From: a bacterium
Lineage (GTDB): Bacteria > SAR324 > NAC60-12
Direction of reading: 5' to 3'
NCBI GenBank assembly: GCA_965233585.1
Contig: CBDDTI010000208.1
Location: 1 to 13,568 of the forward strand
Length of the DNA stretch: 13,568 nt
Positions within the stretch are counted from its first letter, which is position 1, and the number at the start of each line of letters is the position of its first letter. The notes under the pieces are model-generated. The model was not told the origin of the DNA, made no database searches, and was given only the letters and a program-made list of their open reading frames with translations. Position numbers and translations under genes: made by a program. Below are positions 1,846 to 13,054 of the stretch, in pieces.

Positions 1846-1959
1846 AAACACATGTTCCATGTCTGATTTGACCTTTTCCATTTTTGATTTGTTTAGTTTG
1901 ATCTGGTTTTACCTGCCTGTATGCACACAACCTCGCAAGTCTGAAGACTCCCCAAAAGC

Positions 1960-2075
1960 TCTGGTTAGGCTAATTCCTGCCTATTAGGTTATTTTAGTTT
2001 TTAAGGTTAAATTCGATCTATTAGGTTCTGTCTTTTAGGTTATTTGCTTTTTGCCTAAATAGTGTATTTAACCTA
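1960..2075 (+). repeat. Subterminal short repeats (tattaggtt-like) of the palindrome left end
   Basis: tattaggtta (~1983), taaggtta (~2002), tattaggtt (~2019), tttaggtta (~2034); mirrored by taacct(a) copies at ~5890-6050. Confidence 0.6.
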
Positions 2076-2415
2076 AAAACTGTCTTGTTTGAGACTTGGT
2101 TTTTCTTTCACTAAACTATATTTTCAACAGTTTAAACTAAAGACACAGTCTTTTTCCATATTTGTTTCCTTTGGGATTTTTGAATTACATGTTCTTTTTG
2201 GCAAATAGTTTTTCAAATGTTTCTTCGTTATTTTGTGAGTGATGTATGTCGTTTTCTTTTCATATATGCCGATCTGAAGTGATTTTTTGTGCTAAAGTGA
2301 AGCCTTTTGTGCTAAAGTAAGTCGATAAATTTCAGTCGGATATGTTTTAGATGGGGCAAGCCAACACAGCATGGAAGCAACAAAAACACATATCCAAAAC
2401 AATATATGGGCAAAT

Positions 2416-2501
2416 GGGTGTCTCAAAATGAGGTGTCCTTTTTTGACCCCAAAACGGTTACTTTAAAAGGGAAAAAAGGTCACCTCATTTTCAGACATAC
2501 C
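2416..2501. mobile_element. ~86-bp mini inverted-repeat element (MITE-like) nested in the left arm
   Basis: gtgtctcaaaatgaggtgtcctttttt (2418-2444) pairs with aaaaaaggtcacctcattttcagacat (2472-2498), 3 mismatches in 27. Confidence 0.7.
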
Positions 2502-2759
2502 TAAGCAAGAAAAAAAACATATTTTGCAACAATGGCAATGGATAGTTTTTGGGAGCGCCAAGCCAGCACAGGATGAAAAACCAAAAACAAGAAGAAAAAT
2601 GAAACCAACAAATGCAAAAACAACAGCACAAAGTAATAAATCAAAAAATGTGAAAACAATTGTCCGAAACCGAACTTGTCAGCTGCATCGTTTATGAAAC
2701 TCAGAGGAGTTCACGTGAATCCGCGGGTGCTCATTGCTCATGGGTGTTCATGTGTGTTT

Positions 2760-2918
2760 TTCATTTTTTTCGGCTGCCACCCATTTAGCTTACTCAGTGG
2801 GTTTCCGTGCTCAAAAAGAAAAATCAAAGTAAGTTTTCGTGAGGTTCGCGCGCGATTTTTGGGTATAAAATGGCTGCCCCCCGGCGCGCGAACCCAACCA
2901 AGAAAACAAGTTTAGACA
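2760..2918. other. ~160-bp segment present only in the left arm, with a GC-rich hairpin
   Basis: The right-arm counterpart (~5070-5116) joins the two flanks directly. Contains ggttcgcgcgc (2843-2853) / gcgcgcgaacc (2884-2894), a perfect 11-bp inverted repeat. Confidence 0.6.
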
Positions 2919-3769
2919 CTTGCTGATTTGGTTGGTGGTTTTGTCTCATGCGCTGCTATTTGGCTGCAATACCTTTGTCTTGGTGACCAGATGGCCTGAG
3001 TTCTTGGTCAGCTTGGACTCGATTGTTATTTTTAAGATAAATTTGGGGCTAGAGAACCCCAAATCATTGGCAAACCCTGGCCTTGAAGGGCATTTTTTGA
3101 AATCAACTTGAACGTTGGCCAGTAACACATTCATAAACAAAAGCTGTCAAGACTGGAAGGTTTTTCACTTGTAAGAAAGTAGTGGCAAGCACAAAATGTT
3201 TGAAGAATTGCTTGGTGAGGATTGGTTGTATTCAAGTTGTTTTTGCAAAAACTAAACGGAGCAATCCAGCCAAGACTTGATCAATCACTAAGGGGGTCTC
3301 CATCCCTCAAACCTTTTTACATCAAAACACCTGCCCAAAGATTTGCAATCACCTGGGGCTCTCCATCCTTGGCCTTTCTCCCCATTGAAAAAAACCAACG
3401 AAACCACCAAACAATGCAAATGACTTGAGGTGATCAGCATTCATGTCTTTGAGGCAAGTAAACCCAGAATATACCCAAAATAAAGAGAAGGGTTGTCAAT
3501 CCCAGAGCCCATCCATTACTACGTTTTTTTCTCAAACCTATTTGCAACAAATGCAATCCAACCCAGAGGTAATCAATCACTTGGGCCTTCACATGCCAAT
3601 CCATTTCCTGAAAACTAACCCACTTGTTTTGCAGTGACTTGGGGCCCTCCAGTCATCAAATTCATTCACATGTGCATGGGAAAATTTCTCCCAGAAAGTG
3701 TATGGTTGAAGATTTGTTGATGGAAAAAAGTGATTGACCAAACATGTTTTTGACAAAAAACATTTAAAG

Positions 3770-3895
3770 AAAACAAGATTTGTTTAAATAAAATCAAGAT
3801 TTTTGCTGAATAAACATCATTTGTTTGACTAAAAACCAAGATTTTTTGGAACAACACCAATATTTTTTTGAAAAAATCCAATATTTTTTGAAGAT
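3770..3895 (+). repeat. Six degenerate 21-bp A/T-tract repeats (aaatcaagatttttt...)
   Basis: caag/caat cores at 3774, 3795, ~3815 (degenerate), 3837, 3858 and 3879; mirrored at ~4165-4290. Confidence 0.75.
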
Positions 3896-3910
3896 GTTCG
3901 AGGAAATGAG

Positions 3911-4147
3911 GTGCAAATTTGATGTAAGTTTGCATCAAAATTACACTTTTGAGGTGTAAGTTTACATCAACCTTACACTGAGAAGTGTAGGTTTGCACTT
4001 GTATGTGTAAGTTTGATGTAAACTTACACTTGTGATATGTAAGTTTGGTGTAAACTTACACTCTTGATGTGTAAGTTTAGTGCAAGTTTGATGTAAATTT
4101 ACACCTCAAAAGTGTAAGTTTGATGCAAACTTACATCAAACTTACAC
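3911..4147. repeat. Axis array of 25-bp palindromic sites gtgtaagttt-N5-aaacttacac with 32-bp period
   Basis: Full units at 3922-3946, 3954-3978, 4005-4029 (perfect arms), 4037-4061, 4080-4104 and 4112-4136; partial units at 3911, 3985, 4069 and 4138. Confidence 0.9.
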
Positions 4148-4164
4148 CTCATTTCCTTGAAAAC

Positions 4165-4290
4165 CTTCAAGAAATCTTGGATTTATTCACAAAAATCTTG
4201 GTTTTATTCAAAAAACTTGGTTTTTAGTTAAAAAACATTTTTATTTAAAAAAATGATTTTATTCAAAAAATCATTTTTTTTTAAAGCATG
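4165..4290 (-). repeat. Mirror copy of the ~21-bp A/T-tract repeats
   Basis: aatcttggatttattc / aatcttggttttattc / aacttggtttttagt with cttgg cores at 4176, 4197 and 4216; more decayed further out. Confidence 0.65.
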
Positions 4291-5103
4291 TATTTGTTCA
4301 AAAAAAAATGATCAGTCACTTTTTCCATGAAAAAAAATCAACCACACACATTCTCGGAGAGATTTTCCCATGCAGATGTGAATGAATTTGATGACTGGAG
4401 GGCCCCAAGTCATTGCAAAACATTTGGATTAATTTTTAGGAAATGGATTGGCATGGAAATGCCCAAGTGATTGATTAACTCTGGATTGGATTGCATTTTC
4501 TTGAAAATAGGTTTGAAGACGAAAAAAACACGTAGTAATGGATGGGCTCTGGGATTGACAACCTTTTTCCTTCTTTTTGTAAACATGCACCTGAAAACTG
4601 CAAAACCCAAAATTTAAACGCAGCTTCCAGGTTTAACTGCATAGAAAATATGGATGCTGAACACCCCAAGTCATTGTTTTTTTTAGTCGCATTTTTCTTT
4701 GGCATAAATGTCAAGGATGGAGAGCCCCAGGTTATTGTTAATCTTTGTGTTGGTTTTATAATATCGAGGGCTGGAGGCCCTTTAGTGATTGATCAAGTCT
4801 GGGCTGGATTGGCCGTTTAGTTTTTGCAAAAAAAACTTGAATACAACTAATCCTCACCAGGACTTTCTTCAATTTTTTTGCCGACCACTGCTTTTGACAA
4901 ATGAAAGGCCATCCAGTCTTGACAGTTTGTCTTTATAAAACTATTGCTGCCCGAACTGATTTCAAAAAAGGCCCCTTCAAACCCTTGGATTGCCGACAAT
5001 TCAAGAAAGAAATCAGCCCAGGGCTGGGACCTCCATCTCAAGTTCATTCTTTTAAGTTCAAAGAAAGTGGATGGAAGCAAAACAAAACGACAAACAAGCA
5101 AAA

Positions 5104-5204
5104 ACACATGAACACCCATACACACGCATGAACAACCATGAACATCCATGGACGCCCATGAGCACTCGAGCGCGCATGAGCACCCATGAACTCACATGAA
5201 CTCG
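5104..5204 (+). repeat. 10-bp minisatellite (catgaacacc-like), ~10 copies
   Basis: cacatgaaca cccatacaca cgcatgaaca accatgaaca tccatggacg cccatgagca ... catgagcacc catgaactca catgaactcg. A shorter inverted counterpart lies at ~2706-2758. Confidence 0.8.
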
Positions 5205-5434
5205 TGTTTTTCCAAATACAATGCAGCTGGCAAATTACTTGTTGAACCATCTGTCTCACAGTTTTTGAGTTCTTATTTTGGGTTGTTGGCTATGAGAGTT
5301 TTTGATTTGATTGTTTTTTCTTGAACTGAACATTATTTCTATTTTTATGTTTTATGTTTTTTTTGTTTTGTCCTGTGGTGGCTTCGCGCCCCAAAAAAAT
5401 CCTTGCCGATTTTTGCAAAACATGATTTTTGATT

Positions 5435-5672
5435 AATATATATGTATATAGTCATTTATTTATTTATTCAAATATATATATATATGTGTGTAATGTTATG
5501 TATTTATATATACAGTACAAGTATATATATATATATACGTGTGTTTGTGTGTGTGTGTGGGGGGGGGCTGCCTCAAAATGAGGTGTCCTTTTTTCCTCTC
5601 AAAGAACCCTTTTTGGAACCAAAAAAGGACAGACATATCCATGTATATACAATATATATATATATACATATT
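5435..5672. repeat. (TA)n/(GT)n microsatellite tracts flanking a truncated mirror copy of the 2416-2501 mini-element (~5566-5640)
   Basis: TA runs at 5436-5537 and 5652-5670, GT run at 5539-5559. ctcaaaatgaggtgtccttttttcc...aaaaaaggaca matches the reverse complement of 2416-2501. Confidence 0.8.
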
Positions 5673-6199
5673 TTTTGACAGGTGTTTTTTTAAATCCTGT
5701 GTTGGTTTGTCCCATCCAAAATATATGTTTTCTGGTGTTCTTTTGTATGTAGTTTTTCAGCATCATTTTATCGGAAAAATTGTATCAAACCAAAAAGTGG
5801 TTCATTGGAGATTACAAAATAGATAGATATATTTATATATAGAGAAAACGAAGTTGATCCAAAAAAAGGTACCAAAACAGGTTATTCATATAAATAACCT
5901 ATAAGAAAAAACATATTCATATAAATAACCTAAAGAAAAAAGGTTATTTGATCATTCTGACTATTAGGTAAAACAGTTGTTTTACCTAATATATAGGTAA
6001 AAACAAAATTTAACTAATAGTCAGAAAACCAGATATAACCTAATAAATAGAATTTAGCCTAACCAGAGCTTTTGGGTCATTTCAATTGCATATGCATGAA
6101 CGAAAAACATGCAATTTTCTGTCTGCTAGAAGGTCCATATGTATGGACCACAACGGCCCAAAATCCATACGCATTTTTTCTAGTGGCAAGAAACCGATT

Positions 6200-9100
6200 A
6201 TACTAACACGCGAAGACAAGAAGAGAAATGCAAAGAAAAGGCAACAGTTGACCAAAGCTGGCCAAACCTGCCCTGAAGAACACAGTTTTTCAATGCGGCA
6301 ACAGCACTCAGGTACTTACAAGACAAAAGTAAAGAGGCGTAGGCAGGCATGGAGTTGAAGAATGGTTTTTGGCTTAGCCTTGTCTAGATAGCCCATCCTT
6401 CTACCACCAAGCCAAGGAGATGGTCTGTGGATTACAGTAAGATGCAGAGGACAGGATATTTTTTCAAAGATTTGCTTCACTGTCCCTAGAGGTGGCAATG
6501 TGCCCAGTCCCAGAAAGAGCACACGAAGACAAGACAAGGAATGCTAAGACAAGACAGCAAGTGAGAGAACCTGGCCCAGCCTTTTCTAAAGACAACCATG
6601 CCAGTGCAGCAAGTAAAACAGACAACAAAAAATGAGACGGGGAGCAAAGACATTTTGTCGGCCCATATCGGCCCAAATCGGCCCAAAATTTGTCTAGTGA
6701 GCTAACCTTTCCACCTGAGCAGCAATTAAAAAAAGAACCTGACAAAAGACGCAAAGGATAGAAGATGGTTTCAACCAGCCCTTGCCCCACAACCAAAGCT
6801 ATTTCATGTCAAGAGGAATTAAATAGCCCCCCTGTCCATCCCAGAAGCAATGAGCAAATACAAGAAAAGGAAAGCAAACGAAATACAACAGTTGAGAGAA
6901 GCTGGCCCGCCTCACCTCAAGAGCCCTTCCACTGCAGCAACAGCAACTAGATACAAGACAAGGAATGTAAACGCCAAAGAGTGATAATTGATTATCATCT
7001 TAAATTTGTTTAGAGAGAAACCCTTCCACCCCAGAAACAAGAAGGAGATACAACACACATCAACACACAAGAGGTACAACAGAGGGGAAGTTGTTTCAAG
7101 AAAACTTTGCCCAATCATCTTGGCTACGTAGAAGAAGCGTTGCCTCATACTGTAGTCCCTAAAAGAGCAGCCTGTCCACCCCAGAAACAACAAACAACCA
7201 CAAGAAGACGACTGCAAAGCAAAGGCGGCAGTTGAGAAGGTGGCCCAGCAACAGCAAGACCGTAGATAATTACAAGGCAAGAATGTACACAATAAAGAAG
7301 GAAGTGATAATTGAATATCGGCCAAATTCTTTGGAGAGCAACCTGTCCACTCCGGAAACAAGAAGCAGATACAACACACAAGAAGTGCAAAATACGGGAA
7401 GTTGTTTCAAGGAACCTTTGCCCATCGTCTAGGCTACTTGGAAGAAGCGTTGCCTCATACTGTAGTCCCTAAAAGAGCAGCCTGTCCACCCCAGAAACAA
7501 CAAACAACCACAAGAAGACGACTGCAAAGCAAAGGCAGCAGTTGAGAATCTGGCCCAGCAACAGCAAGTAGATAATGACAAGACATCAAATGTAAACGTG
7601 AAAGAAGAAGGTGATAGTTGATTATCGGCCAAAGCTTGTTTAGAGAGAAACCGTTCCAGCCCAGAAACAAAAAGGAGTAACGATACACAAGAGGTGCAAG
7701 GTTGTTTCAAGAAACTTTTGCCCCTTCATCTAGAGTTGCCCCTAAAGAGGCAACCTGTCAACCCCAGCAACAACAAACAAGTACAAGAGAAGGAATGCAA
7801 AGGAAAGACGACACAGCTGAGAGAAGCTGACCCCATCCCTTCGAAAGCCCTTTCACGCCAGCAACAGTAACAACAAACAAGACAAGAAAGGTTTAAGTGA
7901 AAACCTCAAAGAGCAACCTGTCCACCCCAGAAACAGCAAACAACCACAATAAAAGAAATACAAGGCAAAGAGAACAGTTGAGAAGCTGGCCCAGCAAGAG
8001 CAAGTAGATAATCACAAGACATCAAATGCAAACGTAAAAGAAGGAAGTGACAATTGATAATCGGCCAAAGCATGTTTAGAGAGAAACTTTTCTACCCAGC
8101 AACAATAAGGAGATACAATAGACAAGAGGTGCAAAAGAGGGAACGTTGTTTCAAGTAATCTTTTCCCCATGGTCTAGAGCGTGGCTAGGTCAAAGAAGTT
8201 TTGCCTCATGGCCCGTAACGACGGCAACCTGTCCACCCCCAGCAACAACAAGCCAGGACATGAAAAGGAATGCAAAGGAAAGACGGCACAGTTGAGAGAA
8301 GCTGGCCCCTTTCAAAAGAATTTCCACCCCAGCAACAGCAACTGGAAACAAGACAAGAAACATAAAAGAGAAAAAAGGAAATTGGAGTACTGATTCTCGG
8401 CCGAACCTTGCGCAGAGAGCAAACCCTTCCAGCCCAGTAATTGAAAGGAACTATATACAATTCTTTGACAATTCCCGAAAAAATACAAAAATGACGGTAA
8501 GTTTTTTTGAAGTAACTTTTGCCCCATCATCTAGGCTACTTGGAAGAAGCGTTGCCTCATACTGTAGTCCCAAAAAGAGCAGCCAGTCCACCCCAGAAAC
8601 AACAAACAAGGACAAACAACCACAAGAAGAGGACTGCAAAGCAAAGGCAGCAGTTGAGAAGGTGGCGTAGCAACAGCAAGTAGATAGTCACAAGACATCA
8701 AATGTAAACGTGGAAGAAGAAGGTGATAGTTGATTATCGGCCAAAGCATGTTTAGAGAGAAACCGTTCCACCGCAGAAACAAGAAGGATTAACGATACAC
8801 AAGAGGTGCAATAGAGGGGGTTGTTTCAAGTAACCTTTGCCCCATCATCTAGAGTTGTCCCTAAAGACGGCAACCTGTCAACCCCCACAACAACAAACAA
8901 GTACAAGAGGAGGAATGAAAAGGAAAGACGACACAGCTGAGAGAAGCTGACCCCATCCCCTTCGAAAGCCCTTTCACACCAGCAACAGTAACAACAAACA
9001 AGACAAGAAAGGTGGAAGTGAAAACCTCAAAGAGCAACCTGTCCACCCCAGAAACAGCAAAGAACCACAATAAAAGAAATACAAGGCAAAGAGAACAGTT

Positions 9101-11452
9101 GAGAAGCTGGCCCAGCAACAGCAAGTAGATAATGATTTCTTCCTCAAAAACAATAAGGAGATACAACAGACAAGAGGTGCAAAAGAGGGAACGTTGTTTC
9201 AAGTAACCTTTTCCCCATCGTCTAGAGCGTGGCTAGGTCAAAGAAGTTTTGCCTCATGGCCCGTAACGACGGCAACCTGTCCACCCCCAGCAACAACAAG
9301 CCAGGACATGAAAAGGAATGCAAAGGAAAGACGGCACAGTTGAGAGAAGCTGGCCCCTTTCAAAAGAACTTCCACCCCAGCAACAGCAACTGAAAACAAG
9401 ACAAGAAACATAAAAGAGAAAAAAGGAAATTGAGTACTGATTCTTGGCCGAACTTTGCGCAGAGAGCAAACCCTTCCAGCCCAGTAAGAAAAAGGAGTTA
9501 CGATTAAAATAAAGAAAAAACAAAAGACGGTAATTAAGTTGTTTCAAATAACCTTGGCCCCATCACCTAGGCTACTTGGAAGAAGCGTTGCCTCATACTG
9601 TAGTCCCTAAGAGAGCAAGCTGTCCACCCCAGAAACAAGAGACAACCACCAGCAGAGGAATACACAGCAGAGAGAACAGCTGAGAAGCTGGCCCAGCAAC
9701 AGCACGTAGATAATCACAAGACATCAAATGTAAACGTAAAAGAAGGAAGTGACAATTGATAATCGGCCAAAGCATGTTTAGAGAGAAACTTTTCTACCCA
9801 GCAACAATAAGGAGATACAATAGACAAGAGGTGCAAAAGAGGGAACGTTGTTTCAAGTAATCTTTTCCCCATGGTCTAGAGCGTGGCTAGGTCAAAGAAG
9901 TTTTGCCTCATGGCCCGTAACGACGGCAACCTGTCCACCCCCAGCAACAACAAGCCAGGACATGAAAAGGAATGCAAAGGAAAGACGGCACAGTTGAGAG
10001 AAGCTGGCCCGGTCCCCTTCAAAAGAATTTCCACCCCAGCAACAGCAACTGAAAACAAGACAAGAAACATAAAAGAGGAAAAAGGAAATTGAGTACTGAT
10101 TCTCGGCCGAACTTTGCGTAGAGAGCAAACCCTTCCAGCCCAGTAAGAAAAAGGAGTTACAATTAAAAACAACAAAAGACGGTAAGTTGTTTCAAATAAC
10201 CTTGGCCCCATCATCTAGGCTACTTGTAAGAAGCGTTGCCTCATACTGTAGTCCTTAAAAGAGCACCCTGTCGACCCCAGAAACAACAAACAACCACAAG
10301 AAGAGGACTGCAATGCAAAGGCACCAGTTGAGAAGCTGTCCCAGCAACAGCAAGTAGAGAATCACAAGACATCAAATGTAAACGTGAAAGAAGAAGGTGA
10401 TAGTTGATTATCGGCCAAAGCTTGTTTAGAGAGAAACCGTTCCACCCCAGAAACAAAAAGGAGTAACGATACACAAGAGGTGCAATAGAGGTGAGGTTGT
10501 TTCAAGTAACCTTGGCCCCATCATCTAGAGTTGTGCCTAAAGACGGCAACCTGTCAACCCCAGCAACAACAAACAAGTACAAGAGGAGGAATGCACAGGA
10601 AAGACGACACAGCTGAGAGAAGCTGACCCCATCCCCTTCGAAAGCCCTTTCACGCCAGCAACAGCAACAACAAACAAAACAAGAAAGGTGGAAGTGAAAA
10701 CCTCAAAGAGCAACCTGTCCACCTCAGAAACAGCAAACAACCACAAGAAGAGGAGTACAAAGCAAAGAGAACAGTTGAGAAGCTGGCCCACCAACAGCAA
10801 GTAGATAATGATTTCTTCCTCAAAAACAATAAGGAGATACAATAGACAAGAGGTGCAAAAGAGGGAACGTTGTTTCAAGTAACCTTTTCCCCATCGTCTA
10901 GAGCGTGGCTAGGTCAAAGAAGTTTTGCCTCATGGCCCGTAACGACGGCAACCTCTCCACCCCCAGCAACAACAAGCCAGGACATGAAAAGGAATGCAAA
11001 GGAAAGACGGCACAGTTGAGAGAAGCTGGCCCGGTCCCCTTCAAAAGAATTTCCACCCCAGCAACAGCAACTGAAAACAAGACAAGAAACATAAAAGAGA
11101 AAAAAGGAAATTGAGTACTGATTCTCGGCCGAACTTTGCGTAGAGAGCAAACCCTTCCAGCCCAGTAAGAAAAAGGAGGTGCGAGATACAAAAAGTGCAA
11201 AAGAGGGGAAGTTGTTTCAAGTAGCCTTTGCCCCATCATCTAGGCTACTTGTAAGAATCGTTGCCTCATACTGTAGTCCCTAAAAGAGCAAGGCAGGACA
11301 TGTACGCGAGAAAGGTTGATTGTCGGCAAAACTTGTTTAGAGGGAAACTTTTCTACCCGGGAAACAAGAAGGAGATAAAAACAAAAAACTCACAATAAGT
11401 GAAACAGAGGAAAGGTTGTTTCAAGTAAACTTTGGCTCATCATCTTGTCTAC
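6200..11452 (+). repeat. ~5.2-kb tandem satellite, 300-445-bp monomers, higher-order A-B-C organisation
   Basis: The junction motif gttgtttcaagtaacctttgccccatcatctag recurs. Monomer starts: 7119(A), 7429(A), 7730(B), 8174(C), 8531(A), 8849(B), 9222(C), 9567(A'), 9876(C), 10215(A), 10525(B), 10898(C), 11240(A, internally deleted). Strongly decayed copies lie at ~6200-7118. Confidence 0.95.
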
Positions 11453-11786: not shown

Positions 11787-11880
11787 CCCATAGGATCCAT
11801 GTATGGTATATATGCTAACATTTTGGGTATATTGATGGTAAATGTTACCATATATAGCAGCACCATGGATCCGTCATGGG
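11787..11880 (+). mobile_element. ~94-bp MITE-like element (cccataggatccatg...catggatccgtcatggg)
   Basis: Imperfect terminal inverted repeats; a second inverted copy lies at 12455-12540. Recalled as a high-copy Symbiodiniaceae repeat (not verified by search). Confidence 0.8.
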
Positions 11881-12454: not shown

Positions 12455-12540
12455 ATCCATGGTGCTGCCATATATGGTAACATTTACCATTAATATACCC
12501 CACATGTTGGCATATATAGCAGCACCATGGATCCTATGGG
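12455..12540 (-). mobile_element. Inverted, slightly truncated copy of the 11787-11880 MITE-like element
   Basis: atccatggtgctgccatatatggtaacatttaccattaatatacccc...catggatcctatggg is the reverse complement of the first copy with few changes. Confidence 0.8.
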
Positions 12541-12969: not shown

Positions 12970-13054
12970 GACCGACGACGGCTTCCTCAAGAAGTTGACC
13001 ACCTTCACACAGGGCAACAGCGTGGCGCGGCGTGGCAACAAGTCGCACTACTGA
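12970..13054 (+). CDS. Putative terminal exon: (G)TDDGFLKKLTTFTQGNSVARRGNKSHY*
   Basis: ccag|G acceptor; 25 of 27 codons end in G/C in this frame; TGA at 13052-13054. Confidence 0.65.

Follow-up and report, generated by a model that had tools for sequence, protein, structure and literature searches.

A foldback element with CACTA-type ends, probably a non-autonomous transposon of a Symbiodiniaceae alga, in a contig binned as bacterial

Architecture of the inverted repeat

The stretch of DNA considered here (hereinafter the window) is the whole of contig CBDDTI010000208.1, with 13,568 nucleotides, from the assembly GCA_965233585.1, a bin of 12 Mb and 747 contigs (G000) classified in the bacterial lineage SAR324. 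Positions 1951-6076 of the window are occupied by an inverted repeat, which is real yet imperfect rather than a perfect palindrome. Taken together, its structure, its ends and their distribution indicate that it is probably a non-autonomous cut-and-paste transposon of the CACTA/EnSpm (TRC) type with a foldback body, residing in a Symbiodiniaceae host.

The 23-bp terminus of the element has exactly two sites in the window, one on each strand at its two extremities (Table 1), even when up to 3 mismatches are allowed, and two such matches were reached in 0 of 200 shuffles; the ends, which a first-pass annotation of this DNA had described as sharply matching, are indeed identical. Comparison of the element with its own reverse complement by BLASTN recovered in inverted orientation a core (3069-4994, self-inverted at 74.3%) and three outer block pairs, namely 1951-2001/6025-6076 (85% identity), 2340-2497/5569-5726 (70%) and 2512-2758/5141-5430 (65%). 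Likewise, nhmmer paired 1951-2501 with 5554-6076, 2512-2769 with 5130-5430 and 3060-5001 with itself. Global alignment of the whole arms has 1417 identities in 2332 columns (61%), and in sliding windows along the left arm the local score exceeds the best of 30 shuffles in 12 of 14 cases, the exceptions being 2101-2250 and 2851-3000. The left arm has an unpaired stretch of ~290 bp (2770-3059) and the right arm one of ~130 bp (5002-5129), an extra microsatellite (~5431-5553) is confined to the right arm, and a minisatellite is long only in that arm. Thus, the earlier picture of two colinear mirror arms of ~2 kb holds in that homology extends along most of each arm, but the arms are only 61% identical overall and contain unalignable spacers. 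Because the arms are 61-90% alike, the accompanying argument from the instability of perfect long palindromes is inapplicable. Single-stranded DNA folding of 3540-4510 gave -329 kcal/mol, compared to a mean of -109 for 20 shuffles (z -31), and a fold of the whole element, computed without a shuffle control, placed 1201 base pairs on the main axis.

The layered modules named by the first-pass annotation, i.e. end motifs, a mini-palindrome, a minisatellite, recurring boxes, 21-bp repeats and a central array, are all present (Table 1). The ACTTGGGGC-like boxes number 4 in the left arm, 3 in the right arm and 2 outside the element. The mini-hairpin lies at mirror positions in both arms and also occurs elsewhere, in C207 and C466 and at loose ends at 2419 in 3 sequencing runs. 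The number of units in the central 32-bp array varies between copies, with joints 4136->3951 and 4147->4111 in contigs from the runs. The longest stop-to-stop frame in the element is of 129 amino acids, none of 10 frames has a Pfam match and no Rfam match was found in the element, in agreement with the earlier claim that it is non-coding. In the RNA run X15 the element and its flanks have similar depth, as DNA would give, which constitutes no evidence of expression; no spliced-leader motif was detected either in the bin or in the loci described below. The element hence displays the long modular inverted arms, internal tandem repeats and lack of coding capacity that characterize the foldback class. 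An 11-bp GC-rich stem around a TATAAAA-containing loop was noted by eye in the left spacer (2843-2894), and is possibly a promoter remnant of an autonomous parent.

Table 1. Features of the foldback element and its immediate borders (window coordinates)
Feature	Position	Strand	Basis
Left target-site duplication, TC	1949..1950	+	sequence, empty allele
Left terminal inverted repeat, 23 bp, begins CCCAA	1951..1973	+	
Left subterminal TWAGGYT cluster, 5 forward (one within the terminal inverted repeat) and 1 reverse	1965..2076	.	
Arm block B left, with ~80-bp mini-hairpin (2419-2497) that occurs outside the family too	2340..2497	+	
Arm block C left, partner 5130-5430	2512..2769	+	
Left spacer without right-arm partner	2770..3059	+	
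Inner arm D left, ACTTGGGGC-like boxes and 21-bp A/T repeats (3770-3892)	3060..3902	+	
Central array, fold axis at ~4030; in every ~32-bp unit a 9-bp inverted repeat flanks 5 bases	3903..4157	.	
Inner arm D right, 20-bp repeats (4166-4272)	4158..5001	-	
Right spacer without left-arm partner	5002..5129	-	
Arm block C right, overlaps 10-bp minisatellite (5107-5201)	5130..5430	-	
(AT)n/(GT)n microsatellite, right arm only	5431..5553	.	
Arm block B right, second mini-hairpin copy	5554..5726	-	
Right subterminal TAGGTT/TWAGGYT motifs and small hairpin (5955-6026)	5896..6063	.	
Right terminal inverted repeat, same 23 bp as left	6054..6076	-	
Right target-site duplication, TC	6077..6078	+	

A dispersed family with exact ends and target-site duplications

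The exact terminus has 26 matches in 25 metagenome loci, 21 of which come from one assembly, and these comprise 10 left-type, 13 right-type and 3 variant ends. The window's own junctions recur only in L025 and L008; in the remaining 23 loci the flanks are unrelated and break exactly at CCC, giving the sharp inverted ends at many unrelated sites that typify DNA transposons with terminal inverted repeats (TIRs). All three copies with both ends are framed by a 2-bp target duplication, which is TC in the window, TA in L005 and AA in L012. Random pairing of left and right ends matches at a rate of 0.17 (129 pairs), and three of three would occur by chance at ~0.005. Single copies of the target are seen at two paralogous empty sites, one of them involving an inferred pairing: the empty paralogue of L012 in C287 holds one AA, and the flanks of L013 and L015 join via a single AG in the empty paralogues C108 and C13, which suggests that these loci are the two sides of one insertion and provide a fourth pair. 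Identical ends at many unrelated sites, target duplications and empty sites together support the large non-autonomous foldback family that was one of the options in the first-pass annotation.

Other copies retain substantial portions of the arms before their contigs end, with up to ~900 bp of the left arm in L020 and up to ~1000 bp of the right arm in L019 and L017. Short two-ended members are also present (L005 of 1423 bp and L012 of 795 bp), and L005, L012, L014 and L023 share interior modules in differing combinations, some of these modules being absent from the window. Longer copies bearing a transposase or recombinase had also been envisaged; no transposase-bearing copy was found. Within the bin the element is single-copy by BLASTN, pattern search and nhmmer, which says nothing on its copy number because the bin covers little of the algal genome.

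At the 27 ends surveyed the adjacent dinucleotides are TA (8), CA/TG (6), AA/TT (5), AG/CT (4), GA/TC (3) and AT (1). T is found at position -2 in 18 of the 27, there is no all-G/C dinucleotide target, and several copies of the family are inserted in other repeats or microsatellites.

The distribution of the ends bears on two readings that the first-pass annotation had entertained. One took it for a structural chromosomal locus or for the fossil junction of a replicon with hairpin ends; the short palindromes arrayed at the center do resemble repeated binding or resolution sites, but the ends are dispersed with target duplications, part of the population lacks the insertion (see below), and the terminus has 0 matches in viral contigs and 0 in prokaryote genome contigs, making this reading barely conceivable. 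The inner motif similarly has 0 matches in genome contigs, and among 100 bacterial relatives 8 have short matches of 29-89 bp, mostly to one T-rich tract, which were taken as chance. The second reading, a head-to-head insertion of two copies of a single 2-kb element, draws on the homology of the arms over most of their length. Against it, the left and right ends belong to distinct fixed types, both of which are present in L005 and in the window, a single target duplication frames the whole, an empty allele exists and there is no terminus at the center. Hence, we regard such a pair as extremely improbable.

Insertion polymorphism in sequencing runs

Four sequencing runs (X1, X3, X11 and X15) were compared, with X19-X24 being left out on account of their small or absent share. 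In two of the four, X3 and X11, an empty allele of the window locus was detected as a joint 1948->6078 with one letter between; this joint was not found in X1 and X15. The depths (45 + 19 versus 60 in X3; 114 + 69 versus 185 in X11) roughly sum as if filled and empty alleles coexist. In X1, X3 and X11 the interior contigs have ~2x the depth of the left flank, and some of them are diverged, which hints at a second long copy, though depth is no copy number; the depth bin 5402-5592 is uncovered since repeats were skipped.

These runs also address the concern that the structure is an assembly or amplification artefact, i.e. a chimeric fold-back of one ~2-kb sequence, a concern prompted by the presence of the contig in a mixed bin and the lack of a read or contig across the whole element. 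An artefact would give near-identical arms, whereas those of the element differ by 10-35% with indels. Moreover, both junctions recur in other assemblies (L025 and L008), each of the 4 runs has separate contigs that cover the two arms, the fold axis lies within one X11 contig (4006-4136), and the empty allele skips exactly the span of the element. An artefactual origin is therefore highly improbable.

Superfamily affinities

As no transposase was found, the placement of the family in the CACTA/EnSpm superfamily depends on its end signatures. The flanks of 27 ends diverge right before CCC, even though these ends were selected by terminus, and the 2-bp duplications are variable, namely TC, TA, AA and the inferred AG. 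CCC termini with 2-bp duplications are described for SmTRC1 of Schistosoma and its insect relatives (PMC1636069), and the same pair of features was used to place the Spongebob element (EnSpm-4N1_HM) of Hydra (PMC4298943). These TRC elements further resemble the present family in their short perfect TIRs, in 2-bp duplications verified against paralogous empty sites, in internally deleted copies of many sizes and in internal tandem repeats (PMC1636069, PMC4298943). The present family differs from them in its dinoflagellate host, in arm homology that extends ~2 kb past the perfect TIR and in having no Transposase_21 gene in the copies seen.

The subterminal regions may display a further feature of this kind. 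The element contains 10 instances of the motif TWAGGYT, all but one of them within 150 bp of an end, and the other 9.4 kb of the window contains none; at left-type ends the enrichment of the motif was reached by 0 of 300 shuffles for all five ends. The plant CACTA elements (En/Spm), which begin with CACTA and generate 3-bp duplications, carry subterminal TnpA-binding repeats. The clustering of a short motif in both orientations beside each terminus may be comparable, and the TWAGGYT clusters are candidate transposase or TnpA-type binding sites.

Other affinities were considered. Tc1/mariner, piggyBac and PIF/Harbinger elements have a fixed TA, TTAA or TWA target, and were ruled out by the variable dinucleotides over the 27 ends. 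A foldback of the Mutator type was also rejected, as the 8-10-bp duplication of such elements (PMC4079207) is not seen and the flanks share 2 bp only. The first-pass annotation had drawn a parallel with FB and Galileo. Like these and Tetris of Drosophila virilis, the present family combines long modular inverted arms, internal tandem repeats and the absence of an open reading frame with many rearranged forms, terminal segments common to long and short members, and an autonomous partner that was not found (PMC4079207). However, Tetris belongs to Mutator with 8-10-bp duplications, and Galileo, an exception among foldbacks in that most are Mutator, belongs to the P superfamily (PMC4079207), whereas the ends of the present family, with their 2-bp duplications, point to CACTA/TRC rather than to FB/Galileo or Mutator. 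The present family also departs from Tetris in its old divergent arms (61-90%) and in having no middle domain.

An alternative for the same non-autonomous family is that its transposase lies outside CACTA/TRC, in another CMC branch such as Mirage or in an undescribed dinoflagellate lineage that also makes 2-bp duplications. This is consistent with the lack of a partner transposase in the element or bin, with the derivation of the CCC/2-bp rule from animal examples (PMC1636069, PMC4298943) and with the predominance of Mutator among foldback bodies (PMC4079207). Nevertheless, three independent end features, CCC, the variable 2-bp duplication and, less clearly, the subterminal clusters, fit CACTA/TRC, and we consider the alternative unlikely.

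Several points weigh against a CACTA/TRC-type foldback transposon of an algal host. No transposase was found in the element or in searches of the bin for PF02992, PF13960, PF18759 and PF06869, a negative that is limited by the ~9 Mb of eukaryotic DNA in the bin and by no control genome scoring above the cut-off. The wider CMCT group has 2-5-bp duplications and mostly CA..TG ends, not CC (PMC12730594). The TWAGGYT motif was picked after inspection of the sequence and is weak at right ends, where there are 1-2 copies and up to 50 of 300 shuffles match it. The empty allele reads GC as opposed to the expected TC, and the shorter side of its joint has only 30 letters. A contig spanning the whole element is absent in the four runs, and no second full-length foldback copy was found, the others following an arm for no more than ~1 kb until the contig ends or diverges. 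Finally, the host was demonstrated for a locus with a variant end, L004, and not for the window contig directly.

The family attributed here to CACTA/TRC is recently mobile, undescribed and built of known parts, being unusual only in uniting a foldback body with CACTA-type ends. A limited literature search found no description of this family or of any foldback with such ends, and the available parts of PMC6431247 and PMC11219922 contain nothing specific to it. It may already be present, unnamed, in the repeat libraries that supplement publications of Symbiodiniaceae genomes. Zebrafish has long-TIR non-autonomous EnSpm elements, which would lower its novelty. If the partner were a CACTA transposase, one more superfamily would be known to yield foldback bodies. 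Symbiodiniaceae repeats are largely unclassified (PMC9412976), and a family with exact ends, measured duplications and presence/absence polymorphism could be used as a strain marker and as a handle for asking whether transposons move under heat stress. The finding is without bearing on replicon ends or chromosome structure.

Proposed mobilization and origin of the foldback body

We propose that an autonomous partner elsewhere in the genome supplies a DDE transposase in trans, which would bind the termini and the TWAGGYT repeats, excise the unit and insert it with a 2-base stagger. The long form has no gene-bearing loop, its arms meeting at the variable tandem array, and the shorter members would arise by deletion and module shuffling. 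Selection on transposase binding may keep the outer 23 bp identical while the remaining arms drift, and the resulting divergence of the arms would make the foldback tolerable to replication.

The arms themselves may have originated when a single arm, in which the mini-hairpin was already present, underwent an inverted duplication long ago, and would have diverged before the present copies spread. When the outer 300-1000 bp of a given arm are compared between copies, identity is 0.91-0.94 in 6 of 7 cases and 0.79 for L023, whereas left and right arms are 0.67-0.75 identical in 4 comparisons (ungapped columns throughout). It follows that the arms diverged before the copies spread and that the mirror was not made at the window locus. 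The occurrence of the mini-hairpin at mirror positions in both arms, yet also in other contexts, suggests that the ancestral arm contained it prior to the inverted duplication. Fold-back priming at central short palindromes and arm extension during gap repair are candidate origins of such a mirror.

An alternative explanation for the two-tiered arms is a nested composite, in which an outer CACTA-type element of ~2.2 kb with degenerate long arms later received an unrelated ~1.9-kb foldback (3060-5001). The inner arms are in fact more alike in local windows (75-92%) than the outer blocks (65-75%) and are bounded by unalignable spacers, and the inner block is present in no retrieved locus, with L023 leaving the alignment at 2820. 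On the other hand, inspection revealed no sharp ends or duplication at 3060 or 5001, there is no depth step at these positions and no loose end among those listed, beyond which 570 more exist, and both boundaries lie within contigs from other runs (2877-3393, 2856-3076, 4880-5250 and 4945-5250), some of which are diverged. In light of this a nested origin is decidedly unlikely.

Beyond the single transposon with an anciently duplicated arm, a bolder scenario is possible, albeit doubtful. A dinoflagellate lineage with 2-bp duplications, either a deep CACTA branch or one with an undescribed transposase, would have evolved foldbacks independently of Mutator and P. Its 4-kb loop-less form would move intact, stabilized by the old divergence of the arms, and the central palindrome array would be the fold-back priming site of the mirror, now varying its length.

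Host and genomic setting

The five largest contigs of the bin (2.9 Mb) are gene-dense, while 675 of the 747 contigs have low coverage by open reading frames, and marker genes indicate 92% completeness with 2% contamination. The gene density and reading-frame coverage suggest to us a bacterium whose bin also took in eukaryotic DNA, and most of the ~9 Mb beyond the five largest contigs appears eukaryotic. Contigs of the bin share 96-100% identity with the flanks of L010 and L017. The element was detected in 20 of 24 listed runs, from 10 studies, and wherever the organism label is readable the run is a coral metagenome. Among named proteins, the closest to the exon that adjoins the variant end in L004 are from Durusdinium (91%) and from Effrenium and Symbiodinium (89%), compared to 67% for a coral protein. 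The host is accordingly a Symbiodiniaceae alga for L004, and presumably so for the window contig; the dinoflagellate origin guessed by the first-pass annotation is thus supported for this family member and extends to the window by inference. A gene in the same locus (L004:1-8023, reverse strand) encodes an ABC-class ATPase (PF09818), has short exons with apparent GC donors as judged by eye, and lies downstream of the truncated variant end.

When the longest inverted match was taken for each of the 742 smaller contigs, 6 were found with arms of at least 900 bp and a loop of at most 200 bp, and 24 with arms of at least 500 bp; long inverted repeats are generally abundant, with arms of at least 500 bp in 101 of the 742. 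Long foldbacks are therefore ordinary in the DNA of this bin. Given these kilobase foldbacks and the modular arms of up to 1,735 bp, without an open reading frame, in Tetris (PMC4079207), the term giant applied earlier to the window element is overstated. At least one of these inverted matches, in C413, is an array of palindromic units and not a true foldback, and the match of C413 to L019 was dismissed as a family relation, being of the microsatellite only. In an end survey of 31 long inverted structures, no other CCC-ended element was found among the listed ones; a generic scan for CCC-ended pairs was too noisy.

Other repeats in the window and the bin

Two related elements of ~26.7 kb were observed in the bin, in C207 (3679-30501) and C466 (~4122-30732). 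They have inverted arms of ~5 kb that are 86-87% alike and contain ~245-bp tandem arrays, ends that start with AACC, and apparent 4-bp duplications, AAAA and TTGT, noted by eye; the middle of the C207 element corresponds to L034. Their interior has Pfam matches in 0 of 12 frames, and they share only the 80-bp mini-hairpin with the window element. They constitute a giant long-TIR transposon family, and are possibly more interesting than the window element.

Within the window, 6200-11450 is a purine-rich, strand-skewed, satellite-like array with subunits of ~310-350 bp that continues in L008, and displays higher-order repeats at offsets of 655, ~1050 and 1702 bp that are 80-95% alike. Further downstream, 11804-11870 and 12455-12521 form an inverted pair, 91% complementary and 584 nucleotides apart, that we take to resemble a common Symbiodiniaceae short repeat. 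A GC-rich segment at 12970-13054 resembles a last exon, with an AG acceptor before it, TGA at its end and no informative match in the Atlas; should this be a genuine exon, a long intron or an upstream region could harbor both the element and the satellite. At the other end of the window, a short-period repeat occupies 1-440 and includes an inverted pair (38-168), and 728-781 is a hairpin of its own, of 54 bp.

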